DNA of 64,000 nt. It comes from Candidatus Falkowbacteria bacterium (lineage in GTDB: Bacteria; Patescibacteriota; Patescibacteriia; UBA11705; JABHMO01). The stretch spans positions 25,708 to 89,707 of the forward strand of contig JABHAL010000010.1 of the NCBI GenBank assembly GCA_018674305.1, given 5' to 3'. Shown piece by piece: positions 3,570 to 57,391 of the stretch; within the stretch, counting starts at the first letter, position 1; each line of letters begins with the position of its first letter. The translations under genes and the position numbers were made by a program. The notes below the pieces were generated by a model, which worked only from the letters and a program-made list of their open reading frames with translations, had not been told where the DNA came from and made no database searches.

Positions 3570-3580
3570 TGATTCATAGA

Positions 3581-4222
3581 CTATTCTACTTTTTTAAATC
3601 TATTATTAAAAGATTGTACATCTTCATTAAAAATATCATTATTTACCTTTATTTCAAAATCAAATACCCACAAAACATGAGCTATTCCAGATTGAATAGT
3701 AAAACCAACAATTTTTACCGGCCGAGCCCTGTCTGACTTCTCTATAAAATTATCACCAATCGAGTGTTCGTATAAATCTCTACTAGCTAACAACTTTGCT
3801 TCTCCAAATTGAAGAGTTTTAACGCTACGACTTGATTCCTTTAGCACAAAGCCTATGGGAGTTGTATGTTTTCCTATTGTCTCAGATAAAAACTCAACAT
3901 TATTCCCATCAATGCTTTCAACTGTACCCTTTTCAAATGTTTTACGTCCATAGGATGGAAACATGTAAACAATATCACCAATTTTTATTTTTATTTTCTT
4001 TGTTTCAATAAACTCAACAATCTCCTCTTTCTTGGCGATATAATCGCGCATAACTTGAAGTGCTTCTTTGTCACCGGCTTCAGCTTTCTCTTTCAGTTCA
4101 GCAAATCCAAGCCCACCTGAGATTTCTTCCAACTCAGACATTAATTTATCAAAATGCGCTTGCTGAACTTCGGTGAAGTTAGCTTTGAGTGAATTTTCAG
4201 TTAGTTGTTCTATGCTTTTCAT
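3581..4222 (-). CDS. Paralog-family protein P2
   Basis: 213 aa. Same N-terminal domain (about 93-96% nucleotide identity to P1 over the first ~230 nt of the CDS) with a different C-terminus. Confidence 0.7.
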   Translation of the reverse strand: MKSIEQLTENSLKANFTEVQQAHFDKLMSELEEISGGLGFAELKEKAEAGDKEALQVMRDYIAKKEEIVEFIETKKIKIKIGDIVYMFPSYGRKTFEKGTVESIDGNNVEFLSETIGKHTTPIGFVLKESSRSVKTLQFGEAKLLASRDLYEHSIGDNFIEKSDRARPVKIVGFTIQSGIAHVLWVFDFEIKVNNDIFNEDVQSFNNRFKKVE

Positions 4223-8644: not shown

Positions 8645-8700
8645 GAAAAAATAAGGCTACACAAGGCTATACGAGGCAACAAGGCTCAACTGTGTAATGT

Positions 8701-9090
8701 ATGAACAAAGCAAACAGTAAAAATTTAGGTGGTCATACTAAGATGGTTGTTTGGCAAAGCATCGAACAACTTGATGACATCGTGCAGGACATTTTAATGT
8801 GTATCCCTAAAAACAAATACAAAATATATAACCAACTAGAAAGCTCAAACGATTCTGTCGCCTCAAACTTTGTTGAGGGATACTATTCCGGTTATCTCGG
8901 TGAATATATTAAATTTCTAAAATACAGTAGACGTTCAGGTGCTGAAGTCTATACTCGTGGAAGAAGAGTTTATAAACACAAATATTTTGGAGACAATCTA
9001 TATAAAAAGTTTGAAGAACGCTGCGTAAAAACCATGTATTTAATTGACAGAACAAGACAATCTCTCGAAAAGAAACGTAATCAATTATAA
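8701..9090 (+). CDS. Four-helix-bundle protein (TIGR02436-like family)
   Basis: MVVWQSIEQL...SVASNFVEGYYSG...LKYSRRSGAEV matches the family pattern (VWQ...NI.EG...S..E). The probable true start is the internal ATG at 8743, which is preceded by GGTGG. Confidence 0.6.
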   Translation: MNKANSKNLGGHTKMVVWQSIEQLDDIVQDILMCIPKNKYKIYNQLESSNDSVASNFVEGYYSGYLGEYIKFLKYSRRSGAEVYTRGRRVYKHKYFGDNLYKKFEERCVKTMYLIDRTRQSLEKKRNQL

Positions 9091-9157
9091 CTTTTGTTGC
9101 CCTCCTATTTCTCTGTCCCCCGTTCCCTTTTCTAGCCCTGTTTAGCCCTGTTGTCCT

Positions 9158-10750
9158 ATGAATATTCACAAACAACTAGTTTTGAAACTAGCTGGCTTGA
9201 AGGTAAAAAATTCTAATCGCCTAAACAAAGTCAAACGCCAGTTTGCCAACAAACACAAGATCGGCATGATAAGCAATGCCGAACTTTTGTATTTATATCG
9301 ACAAATGCTCAAGAAAAAAGCGCTACCTCACAATGAAGACCTAGAAAAATTATTACAAAAAAGAAAAATCCGCACATTGTCAGGTGTAGCCCCTGTTGCA
9401 GTTTTGACAAAACCATACCCCTGCCCAGGAAAATGTGCCTACTGTCCAGACGAAAAATTAATGCCCAAAAGCTACCTATCAAATGAACCGGCAGTTATGA
9501 GGGCAATTTTAACTAAGTTTGATCCGTTTACCCAAGTAAATGTACGAATTCGCGCACTAACTGACAATGGCCACCTGACCGATAAAATTGAATTAATCAT
9601 TATGGGTGGCACCTGGTCATACTTTCCTAAACAATATCAAAGTTGGTTTATAAAAAGATGTTTTGATGCTTGTAATGGAAAAACTGCCAAGAATATAGAA
9701 CAAGCTCACAAGTGGAACGAAAACGCCAAACATCGTATTGTTGCTCTAACTATAGAAACAAGACCTGATTATGTTTCCCAAAAAGAAATTGCCTACTGGC
9801 GAAAACTTGGAGCAACCAAAGTAGAACTTGGTGTACAATCGCTTAATGATAAAGTTTTGCATTTAAATAAAAGAGGTCACTATATCAAGGAAGTAGCTGA
9901 AGCTACAAAATTATTCAAAATGGCTGGTTTCAAAGTGGCCTACCACATGATGCCGAATTTGCCAGGCTCAACCACTGCTAAGGATTTAAAAGATTTTAAA
10001 ACTCTTTTCGGAGACGAAGGATTTCAGCCGGACTTGATTAAAATTTACCCAACGGTTGTAACAAAGAACTCCCTACTTTTTCGTTGGTGGAAACAAGGCA
10101 AATACAAACCTTATTCAGCAAAAAAATTATTCGATTTACTTATCAAAATAAAGTTGTTAGTACCAGCCTATGTAAGAATCATCCGTTTAATTAGAGACAT
10201 TCCACTTGAAAGCATTGAAGCTGGCAATCCTATTTCCAACCTAAGACAAGATCTACAAAAGGAGTTACATAAGCAAGGTAAATTCTGTAAATGTATTCGT
10301 TGTCGCGAAGCGCGTGAAGATTTACAAGGATTAGACAAAGCAAAGCTATCCAAAATTCACTACCAGGCACCTGATGCTGATGAATATTTTTATCAACTAA
10401 CAAATTATAATAAAAAGAAGTTATTTGCATTCCTTCGTTTAAGATTACCACACAAAGACGAGCAAAACTTTATTCCAGAACTTCAAGATTGTGCTATGAT
10501 TCGCGAAATTCACACTTACGGTCGTTTAACTCCCTTAGAAAAAGAAAAAAAGAAAAAGAACATTCAACATTCAGGACTTGGAACAAAACTAACACTGGAA
10601 GCTGAAGAGTTTGCTAAGAAAAAAGGCTTCGCTAAAATGGCCGTGATTTCTGGCGTAGGCGTACGCGGTTTTTACAAAAAACTTGGCTATAAGCAAGTTG
10701 GGACATATATGATTAAAGATTTAAGTTGTAAGACTAAAACAAAGAAATAA
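9158..10750 (+). CDS. Elp3-like radical SAM/GNAT protein (putative tRNA uridine(34) acetyltransferase)
   Basis: 530 aa. CPGKCAYCP is a Cx3CxxC radical-SAM cluster motif, and the C-terminal GNAT region is HSGLGTKLTLEAEEFAKKKGFAKMAVISGVGVRGFYKKLGY. The domain order is that of Elp3. Confidence 0.75.
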   Translation: MNIHKQLVLKLAGLKVKNSNRLNKVKRQFANKHKIGMISNAELLYLYRQMLKKKALPHNEDLEKLLQKRKIRTLSGVAPVAVLTKPYPCPGKCAYCPDEKLMPKSYLSNEPAVMRAILTKFDPFTQVNVRIRALTDNGHLTDKIELIIMGGTWSYFPKQYQSWFIKRCFDACNGKTAKNIEQAHKWNENAKHRIVALTIETRPDYVSQKEIAYWRKLGATKVELGVQSLNDKVLHLNKRGHYIKEVAEATKLFKMAGFKVAYHMMPNLPGSTTAKDLKDFKTLFGDEGFQPDLIKIYPTVVTKNSLLFRWWKQGKYKPYSAKKLFDLLIKIKLLVPAYVRIIRLIRDIPLESIEAGNPISNLRQDLQKELHKQGKFCKCIRCREAREDLQGLDKAKLSKIHYQAPDADEYFYQLTNYNKKKLFAFLRLRLPHKDEQNFIPELQDCAMIREIHTYGRLTPLEKEKKKKNIQHSGLGTKLTLEAEEFAKKKGFAKMAVISGVGVRGFYKKLGYKQVGTYMIKDLSCKTKTKK

Positions 10751-18843: not shown

Positions 18844-19965
18844 CTATTTTATTTCTCCAGTCAATAGACGATCGCGCCTTTTTTTCTTTGTATAAACATA
18901 GGCTAAAATTAGCATAAATACCACCACAACCAAAACAACTGCTGCCATAAAACTTAAACCTTTATCCTGAAAGGAATATGCAATTAGACCAAAAAGTATA
19001 GCAATTAAATACAAAAAATACACAGCCTGTTTAACACTTAGCCCGGCATCCAACAAACGATGATGCAGATGCTTACGGTCAGCAGAAAATAATGGCTTAT
19101 TTTCCATTCTCCGACGAATCAAAGTCCAAATGAAGTCCAGTACTGGAATTGAAAGTAACATTAAAGTTATTCCAACTTTACTACCACTAATTATAGACAA
19201 ACTACCTAATAAAAAACCGGCCATCGTACTACCACCCTCACCTAAAAATATATTAGCAGGATTAAAATTAAATACCAAAAATCCAGCAAACACCCCGGCT
19301 ATTATCACCGCCAGGAGAGCAACATCATATTGAATAATATCGCCCTTATTTAATGCGGTCAAAAATATAAAAACTGAAGCGATTATTGCTATACCAGAAA
19401 CTAAACCATCAAGACCATCCAAAAGTTTAGTTGTATACATCATAGCGATTAGCCAAGCAAAGGTAAACAAGTCCGCAAATAAAGTTACTTTGTACGGAAA
19501 TCCTTCATACCAAAATAAATTAAAACTGTATTTATTCAATTCAAAAAGTCCTTCACCAATCGGATTGGAAATAAATTCAATGCCAATACCGCAAATAATT
19601 ACACTTAAAATTGCGAATACCGGCCAAATGATTTGCCATTTTGGTTTCAGATCAAACTTATCATCAAGAATACCACCGACTGCCAAAAATAAACTACCAA
19701 TGAATATACCCAAAAGGTTTTTCAAAATTATAGTATCACCAATTAAATCCTTGGTGATGATTGAATAAATAAGTATTACTAAATTTATACTTAAAAAAAT
19801 AGCCAATCCACCGAATAGCGGGGTTGGTTTTTTGTGAATCTTTCTTTGACCATCTGGCCTATCAATTGCCTTGGACCTTTTAGCAATCCAAATAACAACT
19901 GGTGTCAAAATCAGACAAGCAAAAAAAGAAAGCATTAGAGCGAAAATGTAATCGTAGCTGTTCAT
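18844..19965 (-). CDS. Glycosyltransferase family 4 polyprenyl-phosphate HexNAc-1-phosphate transferase (WecA/MraY-like)
   Basis: Multi-pass membrane protein with IDRPDGQRKIHKKPTPLFGG and a DGLDGL motif. The track ORF extends to 20025 through a (caagtaaaa)n tandem repeat that encodes LVLLV; the MNSYDY start at 19965 is preferred. Confidence 0.75.
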   Translation of the reverse strand: MNSYDYIFALMLSFFACLILTPVVIWIAKRSKAIDRPDGQRKIHKKPTPLFGGLAIFLSINLVILIYSIITKDLIGDTIILKNLLGIFIGSLFLAVGGILDDKFDLKPKWQIIWPVFAILSVIICGIGIEFISNPIGEGLFELNKYSFNLFWYEGFPYKVTLFADLFTFAWLIAMMYTTKLLDGLDGLVSGIAIIASVFIFLTALNKGDIIQYDVALLAVIIAGVFAGFLVFNFNPANIFLGEGGSTMAGFLLGSLSIISGSKVGITLMLLSIPVLDFIWTLIRRRMENKPLFSADRKHLHHRLLDAGLSVKQAVYFLYLIAILFGLIAYSFQDKGLSFMAAVVLVVVVFMLILAYVYTKKKRRDRLLTGEIK

Positions 19966-20075
19966 AAGTAAAACTAGCAAGAAGAGCAAGACAAGTAAAA
20001 CAAGTAAAACAAGTAAAACTAACAAGACAGTAACTTGTCTCGTTGGTCTCGCTTGTCTAGCTAGTCTTGCTAGTT
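19966..20075. repeat. Short tandem repeats (caagtaaaa x3 and tgtct-containing units) upstream of the GT4 gene
   Basis: caagtaaaacaagtaaaacaagtaaaac followed by cttgtctcgttggtctcgcttgtctagctagtcttgctag. Confidence 0.6.
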
Positions 20076-26770: not shown

Positions 26771-27385
26771 CTAAAGGTATTCTTTTAATACTTCTAAAAA
26801 ATTATCAAAATCAATTGCCCTATTTTTAAAATCTAAATCGTCATAATTAATAATAATCACTTGCGCCAACTTGAAATTGCCAGCCCAGTTGTCATACAGA
26901 TCATTTAAATCTTTAATATATTTACGGTCAATGGTTTTCTCAAAATCCCGCCCGCGCTTTTCAATTCTCTGCATTATTCTATCCACAGAAGCTCGCAGAT
27001 AAATAACCAAGTCAGGTGCGGGTAAAATTTTCGTGCAAACTTTATAGATCTGACGATACGATTTCCAGTCTCGTTTGGAAATATGTTTTCTATTATATAA
27101 ATGCCGGGCAAACACTTCTGCATTTTCATAAATACTACGATCTTGAATTACTGAATGTTTATCCACAGTTAAATCATAATGATCCTGCAATCTCTTGCCC
27201 AAGAAAAACATTTGCGAATGGTATGCCCACTTTTTCATGTCTTTGTAAAAATCTTCCAGGTACGGATTTTCGGTTACCGGTTCTATATATGGCTTCAACT
27301 TAAAATGACCAGCTAACTTTTTAGTTAGAGTTGATTTTCCAATTCCAATGTTGCCTGAGATGGCGATGAATTTCTTATTCTTCAT
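26771..27385 (-). CDS. Deoxynucleoside kinase (dCK/dGK family)
   Basis: 204 aa with P-loop AISGNIGIGKSTLTKKL, plus YIEPV and ERS-like motifs. Confidence 0.8.
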   Translation of the reverse strand: MKNKKFIAISGNIGIGKSTLTKKLAGHFKLKPYIEPVTENPYLEDFYKDMKKWAYHSQMFFLGKRLQDHYDLTVDKHSVIQDRSIYENAEVFARHLYNRKHISKRDWKSYRQIYKVCTKILPAPDLVIYLRASVDRIMQRIEKRGRDFEKTIDRKYIKDLNDLYDNWAGNFKLAQVIIINYDDLDFKNRAIDFDNFLEVLKEYL

Positions 27386-27394
27386 ACAGATTAC

Positions 27395-27908
27395 AGATTT
27401 GTACGGGTGTACGGATTAATTAGGATTTAATTAATATTAACTACTCTTCTAAATTTTACTCCTTCAGGTGAAAACAAGATTAACAAACCAACCTCTAATT
27501 TCAATAGTTTTAAGTATTCATTTATTTGATCAAAGTCTTTTCTAATAAATCTTTTACCCACTTTCAACTCAATCAATATTAAATCAAAAAATAATATATC
27601 CAAACGACTATTACCAATTTTTTCACCTTTATATTTAACTGGCAAATTAATTTGAGAACTTACTGGAATATTTTTACTTTCAGAATCCTTTATTATTGCT
27701 CTTTCATAATATTTTTCTCTGTATCCAGATCCTAATTCATTATAAACATCAAACATTATTCCAATTATAATTTCTGTTTTGTCTTTATGAAGGAGTTCCA
27801 TATATGTCTATTCTATCAAATTTTTCAAGATCCGTACATCCCAACTACCGCGAACAGGCGCACAAATCCGTTAACTGTTTTTGTGAATCCGTACATCCGT
27901 ACAAATCT
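27395..27908. mobile_element. Cassette of about 514 bp bounded by 23-bp terminal inverted repeats and carrying a GxxExxY-family gene
   Basis: The left end 27395-27417, reverse-complemented, reads aatccgtacacccgtacaaatct. The right end 27886-27908 reads aatccgtacatccgtacaaatct, a 22/23 match. Extra TCCGTAC iterons lie at 27830 and 27913. Confidence 0.5.
27427..27801 (-). CDS. GxxExxY protein (PD-(D/E)XK-fold family, TIGR04256-like)
   Basis: 124 aa. ...IIIGIMFDVYNELGSGYREKYYERAI...GNSRLDILFFDLILIELKV fits the GxxExxY family pattern. Confidence 0.7.
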   Translation of the reverse strand: MELLHKDKTEIIIGIMFDVYNELGSGYREKYYERAIIKDSESKNIPVSSQINLPVKYKGEKIGNSRLDILFFDLILIELKVGKRFIRKDFDQINEYLKLLKLEVGLLILFSPEGVKFRRVVNIN

Positions 27909-27923
27909 AAAATCCGTACCTAT

Positions 27924-27961
27924 ATAAAAAAACAGAGCCTGGTTAGAGAACCAAGGCTCTG
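27924..27961 (-). terminator. Rho-independent terminator after lipoprotein 1
   Basis: cagagcctgg...ccaaggctctg hairpin followed on the minus strand by a U-run (plus aaaaaaa 27924-27932). Confidence 0.7.
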
Positions 27962-27972
27962 TTGTGTTATTA

Positions 27973-28515
27973 CTATTTATCTTCGATAACACGTACCATT
28001 GCCGGCGGAGTGGCCAGCTGAAGTGGCTGATCGCACAGCATGTACGTCCCGCTCCACTCTAGGTAAACATCATCCGTAGTAAAGAAGAAAACCGCGTCAC
28101 CATTGGTTCCGTACGAACCATCGAGCTGCGGGCTTTCCACAACCTTACCACCAACACGTCTACGTGCAAAAGGATCATCGACAATCTGTTCACCAGTAGT
28201 TAACTTGGAGTTAACACTGGAGACCTTACCCTTGATAGTATGAAAGGCCATCACCTTACCATAGCTAACCAGGTAAATGTAGCTGATCTTGTTCGGATCA
28301 TTGAAACGGTTAAGCCGCTTTGACAGGTTATCTCGCTCCAAAGAACTCTCGATCTTGGGCGGCGGCGTGGCCTTGATCAGACGACCCTGCTGCTCTTCCG
28401 TGAAATTGGCCTCTGCCTTCTGGGTCTCACCCTGGCCCTCGTAGGACTCATCATCACAACCAACAAAGGCAGTGAACGCGAAAACACACGCAATTGCCAG
28501 CATAATTTTCTTCAT
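27973..28515 (-). CDS. Lipoprotein paralog 1 (unknown family)
   Basis: 180 aa with signal and lipobox AFTAFVGC. Conserved core LIKATPPPKIESSLER...ISYIYLVSYGKVMAFHTIKGKV...VESPQLDGSYG...PLQLATPP. Local GC is about 50-55%. Confidence 0.7.
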   Translation of the reverse strand: MKKIMLAIACVFAFTAFVGCDDESYEGQGETQKAEANFTEEQQGRLIKATPPPKIESSLERDNLSKRLNRFNDPNKISYIYLVSYGKVMAFHTIKGKVSSVNSKLTTGEQIVDDPFARRRVGGKVVESPQLDGSYGTNGDAVFFFTTDDVYLEWSGTYMLCDQPLQLATPPAMVRVIEDK

Positions 28516-29102
28516 TTCGACACCTCCTCGTCGCTCGTATCAGTCTTGGGATTATCCTCAATAATGCGAACCATCTCCGGAGGAGTAGACAGCTGAAGTG
28601 GTTGGTCGCTCAGCATGTATGCACCGTTCCACTCCAAGTAAATATCGTCCGTGGTGAAGAAGAAAACCGCATCGCCATTAGTTCCATATGAACCATCGAG
28701 CTGCGGGCTTTCTACTACCTTACCAGACCTGCCCTCATGATGAGCAAAAGGATCCTTCACGATCTGCTCACCAGTAGTCAACTTTGAATTAACACTAGAA
28801 ACCTTTCCCTTGATTGCATGAAAGGCCATGACCTTACCAAAATCGACCAAGTAGATATAACTGATCTTGTTGGGATCATTGAAACGAACAAGACGCTTGG
28901 CCAAATTCTCACGCTCCAAAGAGCTCTCGATCTTGGGCGGTGGGGTGGACTTGATCAGACGACCCTGCTGCGCTTCCGTGATCTTAGCTTCTTCCTTCTG
29001 GGTCTCACCCTGGCCCTCATAAGTTTGCTTTTCCGTCTTGCAGCCAACAAAGGCAAACGCCAGAATCAAGCTAAACAAAACCAACGTCTTTCCAGTCCTC
29101 AT
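28512..29102 (-). CDS. Lipoprotein paralog 2
   Basis: 196 aa with lipobox AFAFVGC and ribosome-binding site GAGGAGG. It is about 70% identical to paralog 1, and its stop overlaps the paralog 1 start (ATGA). Confidence 0.7.
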   Translation of the reverse strand: MRTGKTLVLFSLILAFAFVGCKTEKQTYEGQGETQKEEAKITEAQQGRLIKSTPPPKIESSLERENLAKRLVRFNDPNKISYIYLVDFGKVMAFHAIKGKVSSVNSKLTTGEQIVKDPFAHHEGRSGKVVESPQLDGSYGTNGDAVFFFTTDDIYLEWNGAYMLSDQPLQLSTPPEMVRIIEDNPKTDTSDEEVSK

Positions 29103-29226
29103 CGCAACCTCCTCAAGGTTATTAAGATGAATACACTAACAGATAGTGTAAACATCCTATAATATCACATATGAAATACTTTGTCAATAGCGACTGTAAT
29201 TTTACCACAAAGTCGCCCCTTTGAGA

Positions 29227-29263
29227 TAAAAAAACAGAGCCTGGTTAGAGAACCAAGGCTCTG
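29227..29263 (-). terminator. Rho-independent terminator after lipoprotein 3 (duplicate of the 27924-27961 module)
   Basis: Same hairpin and A-run. About 60 bp including the gene 3' end is duplicated (aaaaaacagagcctggttagagaaccaaggctctgtYgtgttattactaYttgtcttcgat). Confidence 0.7.
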
Positions 29264-29274
29264 TCGTGTTATTA

Positions 29275-29817
29275 CTACTTGTCTTCGATCATCCGGACCA
29301 TGGCCGGTGGCGTAGACAGTTGCAGTGGCTCAGTAAGCCACATGTAATCACCTCGCCACTGGACCAATACTTCTTCTGTAGTCCAGAAGAAGATCGCGTC
29401 TTCACTCGGACCATAGGATCCGTCCAATCCAGGACTTTCCATCGTATGTCGAGTTCGTCCAGCGCCAGTTGATCCATCGCCGACCTCGACAACCTGATCA
29501 CGCGTAGTCAACTTAGACGAACAATAAGTAACCTTGCCCTTCACCGTATGAAAGGCCATCACCTTGCCATAACTGATCAAGTAAATATAAGAGATTCGAT
29601 CTTCACGATTGATCTCCTTGAGATACTTCACCAGATTCTCCCGCTCTAGAGAATTTTTCATCTCCGGCGGAGGAGTCGACTTGAGTAACCGTTCCTGGTT
29701 CCTCTCTGTCATTTCCATCTCATCGATGGTAGTCTGGCCAGTATCCAGCGCCTTACCGCAACTGATCATACCCATAGCCAGAACACAGAGAGTAACAATC
29801 GTCATAAGCTTCTTCAT
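29275..29817 (-). CDS. Lipoprotein paralog 3 (diverged)
   Basis: 180 aa with lipobox GMISCG. It is about 45% identical to paralogs 1 and 2 and conserves the TPPPEM, ISYIYLISYGKVMAFHTVKGKV and PLQLSTPPAMVRMIEDK blocks. Confidence 0.7.
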   Translation of the reverse strand: MKKLMTIVTLCVLAMGMISCGKALDTGQTTIDEMEMTERNQERLLKSTPPPEMKNSLERENLVKYLKEINREDRISYIYLISYGKVMAFHTVKGKVTYCSSKLTTRDQVVEVGDGSTGAGRTRHTMESPGLDGSYGPSEDAIFFWTTEEVLVQWRGDYMWLTEPLQLSTPPAMVRMIEDK

Positions 29818-29826
29818 GTCAATCTC

Positions 29827-30342
29827 CTACTGGCCGGGGATAGTGAAATCTGCCGGATGCGTCGCCGGAAGATCATCAGTTTTGAACAGCTCACGGTTGG
29901 CCATTTCAGTTCGCGCATTGTACTTGGCCACCACGTCTCGCCGTTGATTCTGCAGACCCAGCACGATCGTGTTGAGTCGAGAATACTCGGTCTTGTCCTC
30001 GAACGTCCAATCCTTGCGCGGACCAGCGTCTTCCTTGAAGCGCTTGAGCGCCGCGTCAGAATTGACGATCTTGGACTCCAGCGACAGGATATCCTGATTC
30101 GTCTGCTTGAACCACTCGTAGTTCTGGATCACGTTGTCCGCGTCCAGAGTCTTCTCCATGATCTTCACAGCCTGCTCGCCGGGATAACACACCACCCGGA
30201 CAACCGTCCCGATGAGTCCCAACACAATCACAACTGCGAGGATCTTGAAGAACATACTCCAAGGTCCACCTTTGGCCAGGTTGTAGGCCGTGTTTTCGTA
30301 CTTTCGCCCAACATCATCCCATCGATCATCATTCCGTGTCAT
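29827..30342 (-). CDS. LemA-like membrane protein (low-confidence family assignment)
   Basis: Ribosome-binding site AAGGAGGTG before the internal ATG (MTRNDDR). One transmembrane helix (FFKILAVVIVLGLIGTVV) then a helical region with YNARTEMANRELFK, loosely LemA-like. The track ORF extends to 30369. Confidence 0.45.
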   Translation of the reverse strand: MTRNDDRWDDVGRKYENTAYNLAKGGPWSMFFKILAVVIVLGLIGTVVRVVCYPGEQAVKIMEKTLDADNVIQNYEWFKQTNQDILSLESKIVNSDAALKRFKEDAGPRKDWTFEDKTEYSRLNTIVLGLQNQRRDVVAKYNARTEMANRELFKTDDLPATHPADFTIPGQ

Positions 30343-30473
30343 CTCCACCTCCTTAAGGTTTAGACACAAAAATACTTCTATTCAGCAACACAGTTTTCAT
30401 AAGAGTATAGCATAAAGATTAAATACTGTCAACCCTATTACCTAAATTTACAACAGAAATACTATTTGAAACA

Positions 30474-32598: not shown

Positions 32599-33174
32599 TT
32601 ACGAGATTACAAGATTATTCCTGTCACGTTGCCATTTTTGGGGATTGCAACGAATATACCAACGAACTTGCTCTAATTCCTCCTGACTTCGAATTATCCG
32701 ATCGTAAAATCTCCCCTGCCAAAACCTTTCACCAACTGTCCCCCTTATTTTATTAATTTGTTTAGCTGACTGCATTTTAAATCGTCCAATCATTTTGGGC
32801 AATAACATATGGCGACGAATCATTCGACGACACGTTGTGTCGTCTGCATACATTCGTAGAGACAATTCATGAATTGTCTCTACATCACGGTCGTCGCCAT
32901 TAACAATTCTAATTATCCCATGAAAATGATTGGGCATAATTATATATTTATCTATTTCACATTGTGGATAATGCCGAAACGCATCTTGCCAACATTGCTC
33001 AACAATTTCACCAAAGTCATTTAGAAACATCTTTTCATTCCTAACTTTCCCTAGCCACTCAATCATATAAGATGTACACATCGTAACATAATAGAATCCA
33101 TCAGACGAATAATTCCAATACGGCAAACGTGTTGATTTAATTCTATACCTGTTTTTATATAATTCCTCACTCAT
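32599..33174 (-). CDS. IS200-like / REP-associated tyrosine (Y1, HUH) transposase
   Basis: 191 aa. HUH motif PNHFHGIIRI and a C-terminal tyrosine region RFWQGRFYDRII...YIRCNPQKW. It ends 5 bp upstream of the helicase start. Confidence 0.7.
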   Translation of the reverse strand: MSEELYKNRYRIKSTRLPYWNYSSDGFYYVTMCTSYMIEWLGKVRNEKMFLNDFGEIVEQCWQDAFRHYPQCEIDKYIIMPNHFHGIIRIVNGDDRDVETIHELSLRMYADDTTCRRMIRRHMLLPKMIGRFKMQSAKQINKIRGTVGERFWQGRFYDRIIRSQEELEQVRWYIRCNPQKWQRDRNNLVIS

Positions 33175-33802: not shown

Positions 33803-34351
33803 CTATCCGCGCTGACTAAATTCACAACCACAATAGTCCTGCCTGTGGAAATCTTCTTGCGAACTTAATTCACAAGATTTTTTGAAGCCTTCGTTCTTAC
33901 GCCAAATCGTATCAATGAATTTTAGATTATAAAACTCTGCGAACTCCTGGCCGATCTGATTTATCATTTCCGCGGGTTTATGTGGACTAATAGTTAAAGT
34001 TGAAGCAAACGCGTCAAAGCCATCCTCCATCGCTCGTTGCGCCACCTCACCAAGTCGATGCATAAAACATTTGCGACAGCGCTCACCCTTTTCTGGTTCA
34101 TTTTCCAAACCTTTAATTAACTCTAACCATTCATCATGTACGTATTTTCCTTCAATTAATTTAATCCCCAATTTTTCAGTGTAACGCTTAACCTCATCTA
34201 AACGTAGTTTATATTCCTCTTCTGGAAAAATATTTGGATTATAAAAATAAACAGAGACCTCATGTCCCTCTTTTTGCAATTCATTAATAACTTGCCCGCC
34301 GCACGGAGCACAGCAAGAATGGAGTAATATTTTCATAAGATCAAGGATCAA
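33803..34351 (-). CDS. queH: Epoxyqueuosine reductase QueH (DUF208)
   Basis: 182 aa. LLHSCCAPCGG with conserved Cys/His, ...ERCRKCFMHRL and the C-terminal CGCEFS are typical of QueH. Confidence 0.8.
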   Translation of the reverse strand: MILDLMKILLHSCCAPCGGQVINELQKEGHEVSVYFYNPNIFPEEEYKLRLDEVKRYTEKLGIKLIEGKYVHDEWLELIKGLENEPEKGERCRKCFMHRLGEVAQRAMEDGFDAFASTLTISPHKPAEMINQIGQEFAEFYNLKFIDTIWRKNEGFKKSCELSSQEDFHRQDYCGCEFSQRG

Positions 34352-34406
34352 GGGGCAAAGGTCAAAGAAGGATTAAAGCATAAAGATAAAAGAATAAAGA
34401 ATTACA

Positions 34407-34814
34407 CTAATCTTTTTTCTTGATTCTAGTTCCTTCCTTTCCATGAATTATTGAACCTAGGATTTTAGTTAACTCCAAAGCCTCTTGTGCCAACCTTTGT
34501 CTTTCTGCTTCTATTTTTTTATCATCCTCAATTACATACAAAAGACTCAGCCAGTGACGACTTTCTTTTGCTTCTTTCCGACATATTTTTAATCTATGTA
34601 ATTCATCTTTTGGACTTACTGATTCCCAACCTTCAATATAATTTGCGCCAACTGAACCCGAGGACCTAACCAATTGTTTTCCATCTTCAATATTGGCCGT
34701 TGTTTTTTGTAATTGTCTAACTAACGACCTACAATCCTGACCAAACTTTAAACAACGGTCATATAATTGATTTTTTGCTGAAAAATTATTCTGTTCCATA
34801 TGTCCCACGTTCAC
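34407..34814 (-). CDS. Four-helix-bundle protein (TIGR02436-like; the family historically annotated as 23S rRNA intervening-sequence protein)
   Basis: 135 aa with QLVRSSGSVGANYIEGWESVSPKDELHRLKICRKEAKESRHWLSLL, the canonical pattern. Confidence 0.75.
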   Translation of the reverse strand: MNVGHMEQNNFSAKNQLYDRCLKFGQDCRSLVRQLQKTTANIEDGKQLVRSSGSVGANYIEGWESVSPKDELHRLKICRKEAKESRHWLSLLYVIEDDKKIEAERQRLAQEALELTKILGSIIHGKEGTRIKKKD

Positions 34815-34822
34815 TTTAAGCT

Positions 34823-35113
34823 TTATTCTTTACTCTTGGCTCTTTCTTTGCCCTTTACCCCTTGCTCTTTGCTCTTAATCCAAACCTGCTTAAAGATCTG
34901 CAACGTCAAAGTTGATAAGATAAAAGCCAACGCCGGCACAATTGAATTCATAAACGGTTTTGGTAAGCCGGCAAAATAAAAAAACACAACTATAACAACA
35001 TAGGTTAAAATCGCAATCACAATTTTCCGAAACCAACTGGTTTCCCATGCCTTGTCAGCTTCAACTCGGCGGTTACGTTTTTTGATTTGGATTATTTCCT
35101 TTTCCAGATCCAT
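34823..35113 (-). CDS. Small two-transmembrane-helix protein
   Basis: 96 aa with two hydrophobic helices. The C-terminal KGKERAKSKE is encoded by simple AAGG/CAAGG repeats. Confidence 0.5.
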   Translation of the reverse strand: MDLEKEIIQIKKRNRRVEADKAWETSWFRKIVIAILTYVVIVVFFYFAGLPKPFMNSIVPALAFILSTLTLQIFKQVWIKSKEQGVKGKERAKSKE

Positions 35114-41376: not shown

Positions 41377-41456
41377 TAGTTACCTCATTTTTAATGGACA
41401 CTTCATTATAATTGAACTCCCAAAGTTTGTCAATGTAGAGACATTTTCACAATAGT

Positions 41457-41527
41457 CATTCCGGACTTGATCCGGAATCCCAGGTCTCCTTATAAAGATT
41501 TTTAAGACTCCGGATCAAGTCCGGAGT
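41457..41527. repeat. REPIN-like pair of inverted REP hairpins
   Basis: H1 cattccggacttgatccggaatc, and H2 ctccggatcaagtccggag whose core is the reverse complement of H1. The H1 25-mer recurs identically at 59525-59549 inside murI. Confidence 0.7.
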
Positions 41528-41599
41528 GACGCTTTGGGGTATATTAGATAAAACAAACAAAAACACCAACTCGAGTTGGCTTTAAATATGAGGATTCTA

Positions 41600-56482: not shown

Positions 56483-56588
56483 AATTCATAATAAAACTTG
56501 TTTATTGTTTATTGTTTATGATTTAATTTTTATTAATTTATATTTATTGTTTATTTTATTGGGTATTTGGTATTTGTCACTGGTTATT

Positions 56589-57311
56589 CTAACTAATTTT
56601 ATCAAACCCTATCTTAAACGCGCTCAATGATAAACCAGCTACCTTACGCTTCCCAGATACATCAACAGCACTATGATATTCAAATAATACACATAACTTT
56701 TTGGGGTCTTCAGATAAATCCGTAAAAAAACCTATTACACGAGTTTTGTAATCACTATTTGATGACCTGGACTTAAATTCATCACCAACTTTATATCCTT
56801 TATATTCGTGTAGTTCTAATAAAACCTCCTTAATTTGACCAACATTTTCAGTGTTTTCATATTTGGATTCAACTGGTCCGGCAATTTTAATTAAACTAGC
56901 CATTTCAAAAGTATGCCATGAATTAAAAACATCTAGAAAAACCTTAGCAAGTAGTTTAACAGGTTCCACCGTCTCGATTCGTCCAGGTTGAAAATCTCCT
57001 TCTGGGGTCATAACGACTACCCGATCACCCTCCTTCATTTCTGTAATCTCCACAAATTCATTTTCTGGCGATATCTTCATCTCCTTGGTTTCAATAAACT
57101 CAACTATTTCCTCTTTTTTTGTAATGTAATCGCGCATCACTTGAAGCGCCTCTTTACTTCCAGCTTCGGCCTTTTCTTTCAAGTCAGCAAATCCAAATCC
57201 ACCTGAAATTACTTCTAACTCAGACATTATTTTATCAAAATGCGCTTGCTGAACTTCGTTGAAGTTAGCATGCAAGGATTTTTCGGTTAAAGATTGTTCG
57301 GGATTTAACAT
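56589..57311 (-). CDS. Paralog-family protein P5
   Basis: Family N-terminus SLTEKSLHANFNEVQQAHFDKIMSELEVISGGFGFADLKEKAEAGSKEALQVMRDYITKKEEIVEFIETKEMK. A start at M11 (MLNPEQ) is preferred by homology with P7; the track start is 57341. Confidence 0.65.
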   Translation of the reverse strand: MLNPEQSLTEKSLHANFNEVQQAHFDKIMSELEVISGGFGFADLKEKAEAGSKEALQVMRDYITKKEEIVEFIETKEMKISPENEFVEITEMKEGDRVVVMTPEGDFQPGRIETVEPVKLLAKVFLDVFNSWHTFEMASLIKIAGPVESKYENTENVGQIKEVLLELHEYKGYKVGDEFKSRSSNSDYKTRVIGFFTDLSEDPKKLCVLFEYHSAVDVSGKRKVAGLSLSAFKIGFDKIS

Positions 57312-57391
57312 AATTTTCAGTAAACGGTAAACGTTAAACAATAAACCTTTAATTACTTATTGGATATTAGGTATTGGGCATTTGATATTGG

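Follow-up and report, generated by a model that had tools for sequence, protein, structure and literature searches.

Proteins of the GxxExxY type (PF13366) and the four-helix-bundle proteins of PF05635 form large families of unknown function, whose genes are scattered through operons, cas loci and rRNA genes, and GxxExxY genes may also occur within rRNA intervening sequences (IVSs). Searches of the literature on GxxExxY, PF13366, TIGR04256 and PF05635 brought up no account of flanking repeat arrays. The closest described systems are the ORF-containing 23S rRNA IVSs of Coxiella burnetii and Leptospira (S23p). That of Coxiella is closed by a 28-bp terminal stem, which is cut by RNase III in vitro, and contains tandem GACAGAT heptamers that vary in number between strains, from two to three (PMC4990558). 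IVSs are known to contain PF05635 ORFs (PMC4990558, PMC11270868); how IVSs originate and move was still called unclear in 2016 (PMC4990558). As a survey of insertions in the rRNA of CPR bacteria lists PF05635 among the ORFs, and not PF13366, it is architecture and the four-helix-bundle family that connect GxxExxY genes with true IVSs.

The window analysed here is a 64-kb stretch of DNA from a Candidatus Falkowbacteria genome, in which a 124-aa GxxExxY gene (27427-27801, minus strand) is bounded by an inverted pair of the 23-mer AATCCGTACAYCCGTACAAATCT. The two copies, at 27395-27417 (-) and 27886-27908 (+), are identical at 22 of 23 positions, with a single base differing, which confirms the pair reported in an earlier note on this DNA. 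They are the only occurrences in the window, and none would be expected by chance (0 of 100 dinucleotide-preserving shuffles contained a match at three or fewer mismatches). Complementarity between the arms reaches 33 nt at 88% (29/33; 27385-27417 against 27886-27918). Each arm is an array of direct repeats of 8-10 nt, with the unit TGTACGGAT(T) and ACAGATT variants, and the two arrays are mutually inverted. The downstream (3') arm (27386-27417, minus strand; sense AATCCGTACACCCGTACAAATCTGTAATCTGT) comprises four units, two of the GTACGG type and two of the ACAGATT type, and the order of these variants is mirrored in the upstream (5') arm (27886-27921, minus strand; sense GGTACGGATTTTAGATTTGTACGGATGTACGGATT). 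TCCGTAC occurs ten times in the window, against 2.36 expected; five of these copies are inside the cassette (27409, 27831, 27888, 27896 and 27913), and one is in the coding sequence of the neighbouring deoxynucleoside kinase gene, dNK (27260). The whole cassette, arms and ORF together, occupies approximately 27386-27921, and because its sequence is identical in three independent assemblies it is no assembly artefact.

The previous description of the repeats as bracketing the ORF exactly needs qualifying. The 3' arm starts 9 nt past the GxxExxY stop codon (spacer 27418-27426, minus strand) and touches the dNK start codon (27383-27385) with a spacer of zero, the host gene itself (26771-27385, minus strand) lying directly downstream of the cassette. 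The 5' arm, by contrast, is 84 nt before the GxxExxY ATG. The intervening sequence contains degenerate units oriented as in the 5' arm (27829-27875, minus strand), of which one, GTACGGATC at 27829-27837, is intact, and a promoter-like segment (27802-27828, minus strand; sense TTGAAAAATT-TGATAGAAT-AGACATAT-ATG), in which the extended -10 TGATAGAAT (27810-27818) is 8 nt from the ATG. The outer boundary of the cassette is the intrinsic terminator of the upstream lipoprotein gene (27924-27965, minus strand), consisting of a hairpin and a T-run.

Several features are shared with the ORF-containing 23S rRNA IVSs, namely a size of approximately 0.4-0.75 kb, a small ORF in the sense orientation, short tandem repeats in the 5' part (as in the two or three Coxiella heptamers), and a sporadic distribution in which horizontal transfer is suspected. 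The long stem that complementary termini make in IVSs has its counterpart too, as the arms (22/23, or 29/33 over the longer extent) pair in the predicted RNA fold into a 32-bp long-range stem enclosing the ORF, in MFE and centroid structures alike (z = -4.1). On this analogy the arms are comparable to the stem at the termini of an rRNA IVS. The differences are that the cassette is positioned between a terminator and a protein-coding gene, rather than in a helix of 23S or 16S rRNA; that its ORF encodes a PD-(D/E)XK nuclease rather than a four-helix bundle, although the window also contains two PF05635 genes of the same build; that a promoter-like site is present within the arms; and that RNase III cleavage, observed for the Coxiella stem, is here a prediction. 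No Rfam family reached the gathering score in the window, where the cassette is outside rRNA genes. Judged by cross-phylum conservation, no rRNA-like sequence is shared between any two of the 77 GxxExxY loci sampled, so none of these appears to be within an rRNA gene. The reading favoured here, with a probability of roughly 0.6, is that this is an IVS-type selfish gene cassette residing outside any rRNA gene.

The product of the ORF matches PF13366 (PDDEXK_3) at 98.2 bits, against a cut-off of 22, and TIGR04256 at 96.7 bits, against a cut-off of 35, in agreement with its earlier assignment to the GxxExxY proteins of the PD-(D/E)XK fold. All of the motif residues are present: G26-x-x-E29-x-x-Y32, in the form G26-Y-R-E29-K-Y-Y32, followed by D68, E78-L-K80, Q92 and Y96, with D68 and E78-L-K80 constituting the superfamily signature D...(D/E)-x-K. 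Among 63 family members E29, D68, K80, Q92 and Y96 are invariant and E78 is conserved in 62, while G26 and Y32 are each found in 57, the other six having F in place of the latter. Such near-invariance of the active site implies that the protein is under selection. The AF2 model (pLDDT 90.9) has an alpha-alpha-beta3-alpha-beta2 fold, with secondary structures in the order expected for a PD-(D/E)XK core. Its Foldseek neighbours (Cas4 SSO0001, Hjc resolvase, lambda-exonuclease-like enzymes and the tRNA-splicing endonucleases, EndA) indicate a generic PD-(D/E)XK relationship only. Searching PDB sequences with the protein identified no relative, and scanning viral contigs with a GxxExxY profile gave no match. 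From its motif and modelled fold, the ORF is predicted to encode an intact minimal PD-(D/E)XK nuclease.

The empty sites that the earlier note proposed seeking in relatives do exist, and they are clean. Orthologues of dNK at 83% (L008-L010) and 81% (L011-L013) identity lack both the GxxExxY gene and any repeat; at these loci a terminator of the same type precedes the dNK promoter, and is followed by TGCTAAAAT or TGTTAGAAT, 8 nt and the ATG. In a further relative (L006; dNK 78%, GxxExxY 70% identity) the cassette occupies the same site as in the window, and alignment with the empty sites shows the inserted segment to start and stop at the repeat arrays, such that deleting GTACGGATT...TAATCCGC brings back the 8-nt spacing between the -10 and the ATG. 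This cassette-carrying dNK is less similar to that of the window than are the empty-site genes (78%, against 83% and 81%). The occurrence of the GxxExxY gene at this locus without its repeats, which would have spoken against the repeats as part of the unit, was not observed, because L006 has both. No presence/absence polymorphism at the population level was seen among contigs with identical dNK. The arms and the ORF have been gained or lost as one unit, and the arms are, on this sequence comparison, the apparent ends of the inserted unit. The idea of a repeat-bounded mobile unit of approximately 0.5 kb therefore gains from the empty sites, from the boundaries in L006 and from the homologues found elsewhere, and a mobile unit bounded by its arms seems probable.

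The cassette takes up the stretch from promoter to ATG of a dNK gene of the leaderless type, so that dNK is now read after it. The segment at 27802-27828 is homologous to the empty-site dNK promoter (L006, L008 and L011 compared), which has the same 8-nt spacing to the dNK ATG, and from this homology we infer that it is a promoter. A scan for consensus promoters returned no more sites than in shuffles and missed the extended -10. Since the 41-nt gap between the GxxExxY stop codon and dNK is nearly all arm, no separate promoter is evident for dNK, which judging from this layout is probably co-transcribed with the cassette.

The same type of cassette is found in other contexts. The three closest GxxExxY homologues with readable DNA (76, 70 and 67% identity) all have TACGGAT-type arrays, and two of them are beside other genes. 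The first of these (P0002, 76%) is upstream of a glycosyltransferase gene, with TACGGATGTACGGATTGCA in at least four copies on its upstream side and ATCCGTA units in inverted orientation on its downstream side, and the other (P0004, 67%) is upstream of a peptidase M16 gene, with the units TACGGATT/TACAGATT. The earlier suggestion that GxxExxY copies be compared for matching repeats is thus answered by close homologues carrying TACGGAT arrays beside unrelated genes (L007, L105/L106). The contigs of L105 and L106 end within repeat arrays. A further GxxExxY gene (P0005) adjoins a DJ-1/PfpI gene.

Across the family, inverted flanking arrays of 8-10-nt units were called at 31 of 64 GxxExxY genes, from many phyla, and at none of 321 controls; a call was an alignment score of at least 27 between the upstream flank and the reverse-complemented downstream flank, and the controls were shifted positions. 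The flank scores of the two sets differ accordingly (Mann-Whitney p = 2e-17), and about half of the family sample (n = 64) is without detectable arms. Units upstream of the gene point one way and those downstream the other; the median arm has three units, and 8-10 nt is the modal distance between them. Perfectly complementary arms are present at L069 (32 nt), L015 (19 nt), L014 (17 nt) and L022 (19 nt), and those of L033 are nearly complementary over approximately 107 nt. Syntenic copies, which are presumably older, have arms less often (4/20) than the others do (25/41; p = 0.003). This argues that the arms are dispensable for the host and the protein once the cassette has been fixed, and in annotation they would provide a signature by which recent insertions could be told from fixed copies. 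In 49 of 55 GxxExxY cases the upstream neighbour has the same orientation, compared with a baseline of 122/180.

Both of the four-helix-bundle genes named in the earlier note (8701-9090, plus strand, and 34407-34799, minus strand) are members of PF05635. When the 68 genes of the window were ranked by the inverted repeat in their flanks, the top two were a four-helix-bundle gene, scoring 53, and the GxxExxY gene, scoring 46, against a median of 17. Other long inverted pairs in the window (54363/55183 and 59552/60356) represent low-complexity coding sequence or are weak, and were set aside. Of five four-helix-bundle genes examined in CPR, Chlorobi and Planctomycetes, four have the same arms (z = 7.7-10.9), and the same build recurs at GxxExxY and four-helix-bundle (23S_rRNA_IVP) genes across phyla. 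Miniature versions lacking an ORF are also present, both at L093 and in the window itself (19972-20075).

Similarities to known mobile elements are partial. As in TIR transposons and MITEs, a segment that some relatives have and others lack is terminated precisely by inverted repeats, the boundaries coinciding in L006, and ORF-less miniature versions exist. Unlike these elements, the cassette has no DDE, serine or tyrosine transposase, each of its arms is made up of several 8-10-nt units in place of a single TIR, and there is one pair in 64 kb. The suggested check for target-site duplications found no direct repeat at the flanks, either in the window (ATATAG | arm...arm | ATGAAG) or in L006 (ATAGAG | ... 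| AATTATG). Eight proteins scanned around the cassette gave no match to transposase, recombinase or integrase families, and gene tables of the loci within 10 kb on either side contained no recombinase or integrase, except for a faint Y1_Tnp match next to UvrD; this gene is approximately 5 kb away and occurs also in the empty-site relatives. With neither a target-site duplication nor a transposase found, the repeats are not established as the TIRs of a transposon. A REP/RAYT system likewise has one gene flanked on both sides by cognate short inverted repeats, but REPs are palindromes of approximately 20-40 nt in hundreds of dispersed copies, whereas the cassette units cluster almost wholly at the cassette, and the RAYT (REP-associated tyrosine transposase) is a Y1 HUH enzyme rather than a PD-(D/E)XK one. 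Free-standing homing endonuclease genes are also small, selfish nuclease genes inserted sporadically between host genes, with clean empty sites, but they lack flanking inverted arrays and have one cognate site, whereas this cassette type is found at unrelated sites and in one version has a non-nuclease ORF. An integron gene cassette was considered and rejected, given the arms on both sides of the ORF, where such a cassette has a single attC site 3' of it, and no integrase among the eight proteins or in the 10-kb gene tables.

Under the IVS-type reading, a transcript spanning both arms would form a 32-bp duplex around the ORF, which RNase III might cut as it does the stem of the Coxiella 23S rRNA IVS, and the cut would separate the RNA of the cassette from that of the host, the dNK message then having only a short 5' end. 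By analogy and on the modelled fold the arm stem is a likely RNase III substrate; whether the arms are in fact processed in this way is roughly an even chance. Mismatches between the arms give no RNA-specific G·U signal in favour of this step, and, as the putative promoter lies between the 5' arm and the ORF, transcription of this arm would depend on read-through at the lipoprotein terminator or on some promoter that went unrecognised. Single-unit slippage may lengthen and shorten the arrays. For DNA movement the obvious candidate is the strictly conserved nuclease, but the four-helix-bundle cassettes encode none; mobility driven by the intact GxxExxY enzyme is put forward only tentatively.

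Two of the alternatives retain a small share of the probability. In the first, the GxxExxY protein binds the arrays on either side of its gene, for autoregulation or DNA looping, and the unit is immobile. The units are short and approximately one helical turn apart (8-10 nt), the mismatches between arms are mostly transversions in spacers, with the unit cores kept, and the type of unit tracks the protein clade, being TACGGAT at 67-76% identity, TACAGAT at 50-54% and TACGAAT at approximately 40%, all of which would suit such sites. In many loci, however, the arms are complementary in their spacers as well and have their unit variants in mirrored order, neither of which is required of an array of sites. 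The unrelated four-helix-bundle family has the same architecture, the empty sites and the several genomic contexts indicate that the unit relocates, and syntenic copies lose their arms yet keep an intact protein. Self-binding without mobility is consequently regarded as improbable.

An equally improbable alternative is that the arms are an RNA structure only, for instance a panhandle that stabilises or processes a small mRNA, evolved in place by slippage and with no DNA mobility. Slippage of single units is seen directly, both between Coxiella strains and in a pair of MAGs that are 99.95% identical over 20.6 kb and differ at only two places, one a base within the GxxExxY ORF and the other an indel of one 9-nt unit in a sister repeat hairpin. 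A strong stem is predicted, and in two lineages ORF-less repeat hairpins with differing units are found at the same position 5' of an MraY-like gene. Against this, the inserted segment in L006 is bounded by the arms at their outer ends, the same unit type accompanies closely related proteins at unrelated loci, and the 5' arm in the window is upstream of the promoter-like site. Furthermore, of 189 mismatches between arms, 120 of them transversions, 35 are G·U-compatible in the sense and 34 in the antisense direction, and with no excess of G·U, pairing as RNA is not singled out over pairing as DNA or binding by protein.

That the 23-bp repeats enclose an invertible switch, with promoter and gene (27418-27885) flipped by site-specific recombination, is very unlikely: the segment is of typical switch size and has inverted repeats around a promoter-like element, but all five copies from three assemblies have one orientation, the eight scanned proteins include no recombinase family match and the 10-kb tables only the faint Y1_Tnp, whole ORFs within operons are enclosed family-wide, and the dNK-type promoter, between the 5' arm and the ORF in the window, is upstream of the arm in both L006 and L007. 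The alternative in the earlier note, that the arrays are operators through which a host regulator controls the dNK or lipoprotein genes, could draw on the arm abutting the dNK start codon and the TCCGTAC in the dNK coding sequence, but can be discounted almost entirely, as dNK orthologues without GxxExxY have no such repeats and the same repeats accompany GxxExxY homologues beside peptidase M16 and glycosyltransferase genes, the arrays travelling with the GxxExxY gene and not with its neighbours.

More speculatively, and doubtful at present, GxxExxY and four-helix-bundle genes may be the cargo of one widespread and so far undescribed class of mobile hairpin cassettes, defined by inverted, slippage-prone arrays of 7-10-nt units and inserting at the 5' ends of genes, in operons and in rRNA helices. 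The rRNA IVSs would then be the rRNA-resident subset, and the PD-(D/E)XK nuclease would move cassettes in a structure-specific manner, possibly acting in trans on versions without a nuclease or without an ORF. If both families do ride in the same repeat-armed cassette, the testable unit is the arms plus the ORF, and the presence of PF13366 and PF05635 genes as apparent passengers in unrelated operons would be accounted for. Cultivable carriers and a candidate enzyme would also be on hand: Pedobacter polaris RP-3-22 (L026) and Pontibacter rufus 172403-2 (L068) are cultivable and have armed cassettes, and in Flammeovirga sp. EKP202 (L058) the GxxExxY gene is present with arms undetected. A scan of a genome-contig collection, in which the species of the window was not among the matches, gave a best match of 54% identity. 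Scanning metagenomes for TTGTACGGRTGTACGGATT, in a collection without the window's own population, gave eight matches. One (L095) is a GC-rich cluster of that motif; another, at L093, is a hairpin related to the cassette but lacking an ORF, on a contig of 302 kb whose genes are CPR-like; and the remaining matches look like chance.

The inverted repeat proposed to bracket the GxxExxY gene is present as originally described, with 23 nt at 27395-27417 (-) and 27886-27908 (+) that differ at a single base between the copies; no match to this sequence arose in 100 dinucleotide-preserving shuffles, even at three mismatches. Inverted complementarity between the arms reaches 33 nt (88%), and TCCGTAC occurs ten times in the window (2.4 expected), five of these copies lying within the element. 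The cassette sequence, identical across three independent assemblies, comes from a Candidatus Falkowbacteria MAG within the Patescibacteria/CPR (GCA_018670895.1, GCA_018665965.1). On the minus (coding) strand, 5' to 3', the upstream lipoprotein gene's terminator (27965-27924) and ATATAG are followed by the 5' arm GGTACGGATTTTAGATTTGTACGGATGTACGGATT (27921-27886), degenerate repeat units (27875-27829), TTGAAAAATT-TGATAGAAT with a -10 at 27818-27810, 8 nt before the GxxExxY ATG, the ORF (27427-27801; ATG at 27801, stop ending at 27427), a 9 nt gap and the 3' arm AATCCGTACACCCGTACAAATCTGTAATCTGT (27417-27386), directly after which comes the ATG of the deoxynucleoside kinase gene, dNK (27385, -). 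Each arm array consists of four units of 7-10 nt, and the order of unit variants, ACAGATT-like and then GTACGG-like, is mirrored in the opposite arm. In the predicted fold of the 556-nt sense-strand RNA, a 32-bp long-range stem encloses the ORF in both the MFE and centroid structures (z = -4.1).

The ORF product is a GxxExxY/PDDEXK_3 protein, scoring well over both curated cut-offs. All 63 members compared, from many phyla, share E29, D68, K80, Q92 and Y96, and 62 of them also have E78. A sequence search found no relatives in the PDB; the AF2 model is confident (pLDDT 90.9), and its fold neighbours there are minimal or Cas4-like PD-(D/E)XK enzymes, namely Cas4 SSO0001, the Hjc resolvase ST1444, lambda-exonuclease-like enzymes, MGME1 and tRNA-splicing endonucleases (query-normalised TM-score up to 0.59). 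From the conserved residues and modelled fold, the protein is under selection, and it is probably an active nuclease.

Relatives were examined for empty sites, and clean examples were found. The dNK orthologues nearest to that of the window (83%, L008-L010; 81%, L011-L013) have neither the GxxExxY gene nor the repeats, and at these loci a terminator T-run leads into an extended -10 (TGCTAAAAT or TGTTAGAAT) lying 8 nt from the dNK ATG, which is a leaderless-type start. The cassette is present in a more distant relative, L006 (dNK 78%, GxxExxY 70%), in the order promoter TGATAGAAT, GTACGGATTACGGATTTGTACGGATGGTACGGAATACGGATTTGTAC, ORF, TAATCCGTATCATCCGTACAAATACGTAATCCGC and AATT-ATG of dNK. Removing the stretch from the first to the last unit in L006 regains the 8-nt spacing between -10 and ATG, which implies that the arrays are the ends of the inserted DNA. 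The target-site duplication also sought was not found when empty and filled sites were compared. In L006 and a further comparison locus, L007, the promoter is upstream of the arm, but in the window a dNK-type promoter follows the 5' arm and precedes the ORF, so that it is the GxxExxY ATG that occupies the leaderless position. Either this lineage has seen the array move with respect to the promoter, or read-through of the lipoprotein terminator accounts for transcription of the 5' arm. An 18-nt stretch of the dNK coding sequence (27258-27275; AGGTACGGATTTTCGGTT) and the outer end of the 5' arm (27904-27921) are 89% complementary, and the TCCGTAC within this dNK stretch is absent from the dNK genes of empty-site relatives; the match could be a coincidence or a vestige of some interaction with the cassette.

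Related arrays were also sought, and found, at other GxxExxY copies. The closest homologue, P0002 (76%), has a glycosyltransferase gene downstream, with at least four copies of TACGGATGTACGGATTGCA before the GxxExxY gene and inverted ATCCGTA units after it; for P0004 (67%) the downstream gene encodes a peptidase M16 and the units are TACGGATT/TACAGATT, and P0005 (61%) adjoins a DJ-1/PfpI gene. As the arrays recur at P0002 and P0004, the repeats accompany the GxxExxY gene, which rules out the earlier note's alternative of a protein-binding array regulating the neighbouring dNK or lipoprotein genes. Both contigs carrying P0002 end inside an array of 19-nt super-repeats (L105 1-102, four copies visible; L106 1-83, three copies), which suggests that arrays of this type disrupt short-read assembly.

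Scanning one genome per species with a profile gave 77 GxxExxY loci, spanning CPR, Bacteroidota, Chloroflexota, Cyanobacteria, Desulfobacterales, Myxococcota and others. For the 64 genes with complete flanks, the 150 nt upstream were aligned to the reverse complement of the 150 nt downstream, with 321 pseudo-genes offset by 1.2-2.4 kb within the same loci as controls. Scores of at least 27 were reached by 31 of the 64 genes and by none of the 321 controls (Mann-Whitney p = 2e-17). The arms are arrays of short units (e.g. TACAGAT, TACGAAT, AGGATT, CACGAAT, GGGATT, CCGATT) oriented one way upstream of the gene and the opposite way downstream, with a median of three units per arm and a modal spacing of 8-10 nt (67 of 129 spacings). 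In several loci complementarity continues even through the spacers, being perfect in L069 (32 nt), L015, L014, L022 and L054 and near-perfect across ~107 nt in L033. The filled and empty sites, the other contexts and these family-wide arms support and generalise the original proposal of a repeat-bounded mobile cassette: the arms together with the ORF are present or absent as one discrete unit.

Both four-helix-bundle genes named in the earlier note do belong to PF05635, the '23S rRNA IVS protein' family. Among the window's 68 genes (median flank score 17), the top two flank inverted repeats are those of the four-helix-bundle gene 34407-34814 (53) and the GxxExxY gene (46). This PF05635 gene, also placed at 34407-34799 (-; region 34336-34877), has 64-nt arms of xAAAG units, 77% complementary; the 5' arm codes for the lysine-rich end of ORF 34823-35113, which lies upstream, the QueH ATG marks the end of the 3' arm, and a relative, L100, has this cassette at the corresponding locus (protein 77% identical). 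The second, at 8701-9090 (+; region 8650-9160), has weaker arms (score 22), with AAGGCT units upstream and TAGCCCTG units downstream. Five further PF05635 genes were considered, at a relative's QueH locus, in a CPR type IV secretion operon (two), at a leucine-biosynthesis-type locus in Chlorobi and at an ABC-transporter locus in Planctomycetes, and four of them have arms of the same build abutting the ORF directly (z = 7.7-10.9). The two secretion-operon cassettes (L101 2001-3591) have differing units (CTAAAT; CAATT) and sit between consecutive PrgI, TraC-like and TraG-like genes of this type IV secretion/conjugation operon.

ORF-less versions also exist. In L093, a 302-kb metagenome contig with CPR-like genes, an intergenic hairpin following a terminator (3577-3660) consists of GGATTACGGATTTGTACGGATGTACGGATT, a short loop and TTCGTACAAATCAGTAATCCGTCC (-42 kcal/mol, z = -7.7), with TACGGAT units like those of the window cassette. 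In the window, an MraY-like glycosyltransferase gene (18844-19965, -) has a 104-nt hairpin of xCAAG(T/A) units (19972-20075) separating its -10 (TGTAGAAT) from its ATG; at this gene the site is empty in L008 (TGCTAAAAT-TTAGGCAT-ATG) and holds a different repeat hairpin in L011. Across a 20.6-kb stretch at 99.95% identity, two MAGs have only two differences, a single base within the GxxExxY ORF and a 9-nt single-unit indel in this hairpin (20011-20019; unit absent in GCA_018665965.1), the latter providing direct evidence of unit slippage. Arms are kept in 4 of 20 GxxExxY copies syntenic with another sampled species, as against 25 of 41 in unique contexts (Fisher p = 0.003), a distribution which argues that arms are a sign of recent insertion and degenerate with time. 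The gene upstream is co-oriented with the GxxExxY gene in 49 of 55 cases, compared to 122 of 180 adjacent pairs as the baseline.

[quoted passage not shown] This is the build of the GxxExxY cassette, and GACAGAT is nearly the TACAGAT unit of L014, L015 and L007. Insertions in CPR 16S and 23S genes also carry PF05635 ORFs (PMC11270868). The same build is thus common to two protein families and a true rRNA IVS; the origin and mobility of IVSs were still termed unclear in 2016 (PMC4990558), and a literature search found no general description of arrays flanking GxxExxY or four-helix-bundle genes. With a probability of around one half, we infer that arms within one transcript must pair, and that the resulting 20-60-bp duplex would be an RNase III substrate. 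Cutting would part the cassette RNA from the host message. At dNK and QueH the 3' arm stops 0-4 nt short of the host ATG, and there the remaining downstream message would be near-leaderless, as in the empty sites. It is a more doubtful suggestion that the nuclease drives movement of the DNA. Two findings speak against the arms being an RNA-only structure: arm mismatches have no G·U bias (35 vs 34; 120/189 transversions), and fixed copies lose their arms. A TIR transposon is rejected, there being neither a target-site duplication nor a transposase. As these two features are lacking, and an rRNA IVS is defined by its location in an rRNA gene, where the window cassette does not lie, the element is best filed as an IVS-type repeat-armed cassette in a protein-coding context, with a PD-(D/E)XK nuclease as cargo.

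Other repeats occur in the window. The first of three tandem ~240-aa paralogues, at 56589-57341 (-; region 56500-57346) and with no Pfam match, has GTTTAxx units upstream and xxTAAAC downstream (flank score 32), a cassette-like build around a gene outside the IVS families. A 213-aa gene at 3581-4222, also with no Pfam match, lies between palindromic TCCCGCAAACGGGATCCCGC-type units (flank score 34), and a 25-nt hairpin at 41455-41530 is 92% complementary with nested TCCGGA palindromes; both look like a different repeat type. Between UvrD and dNK, three paralogous lipoprotein genes and a 180-aa gene (27973-30369) have a GC content of 0.48-0.49, against ~0.35 elsewhere, and the terminator segments of two of these genes are 87% identical (27924-28028, 29226-29330). 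The stretch is variable, with one 617-aa gene in L008 and two other genes in L011, and is probably an acquired island or insertion hotspot. Directly upstream of UvrD, a small gene (~32600-33100; L001 4736-5203) with faint similarity to Y1_Tnp (IS200/RAYT-like) is kept at this position in relatives with empty dNK sites (L008).
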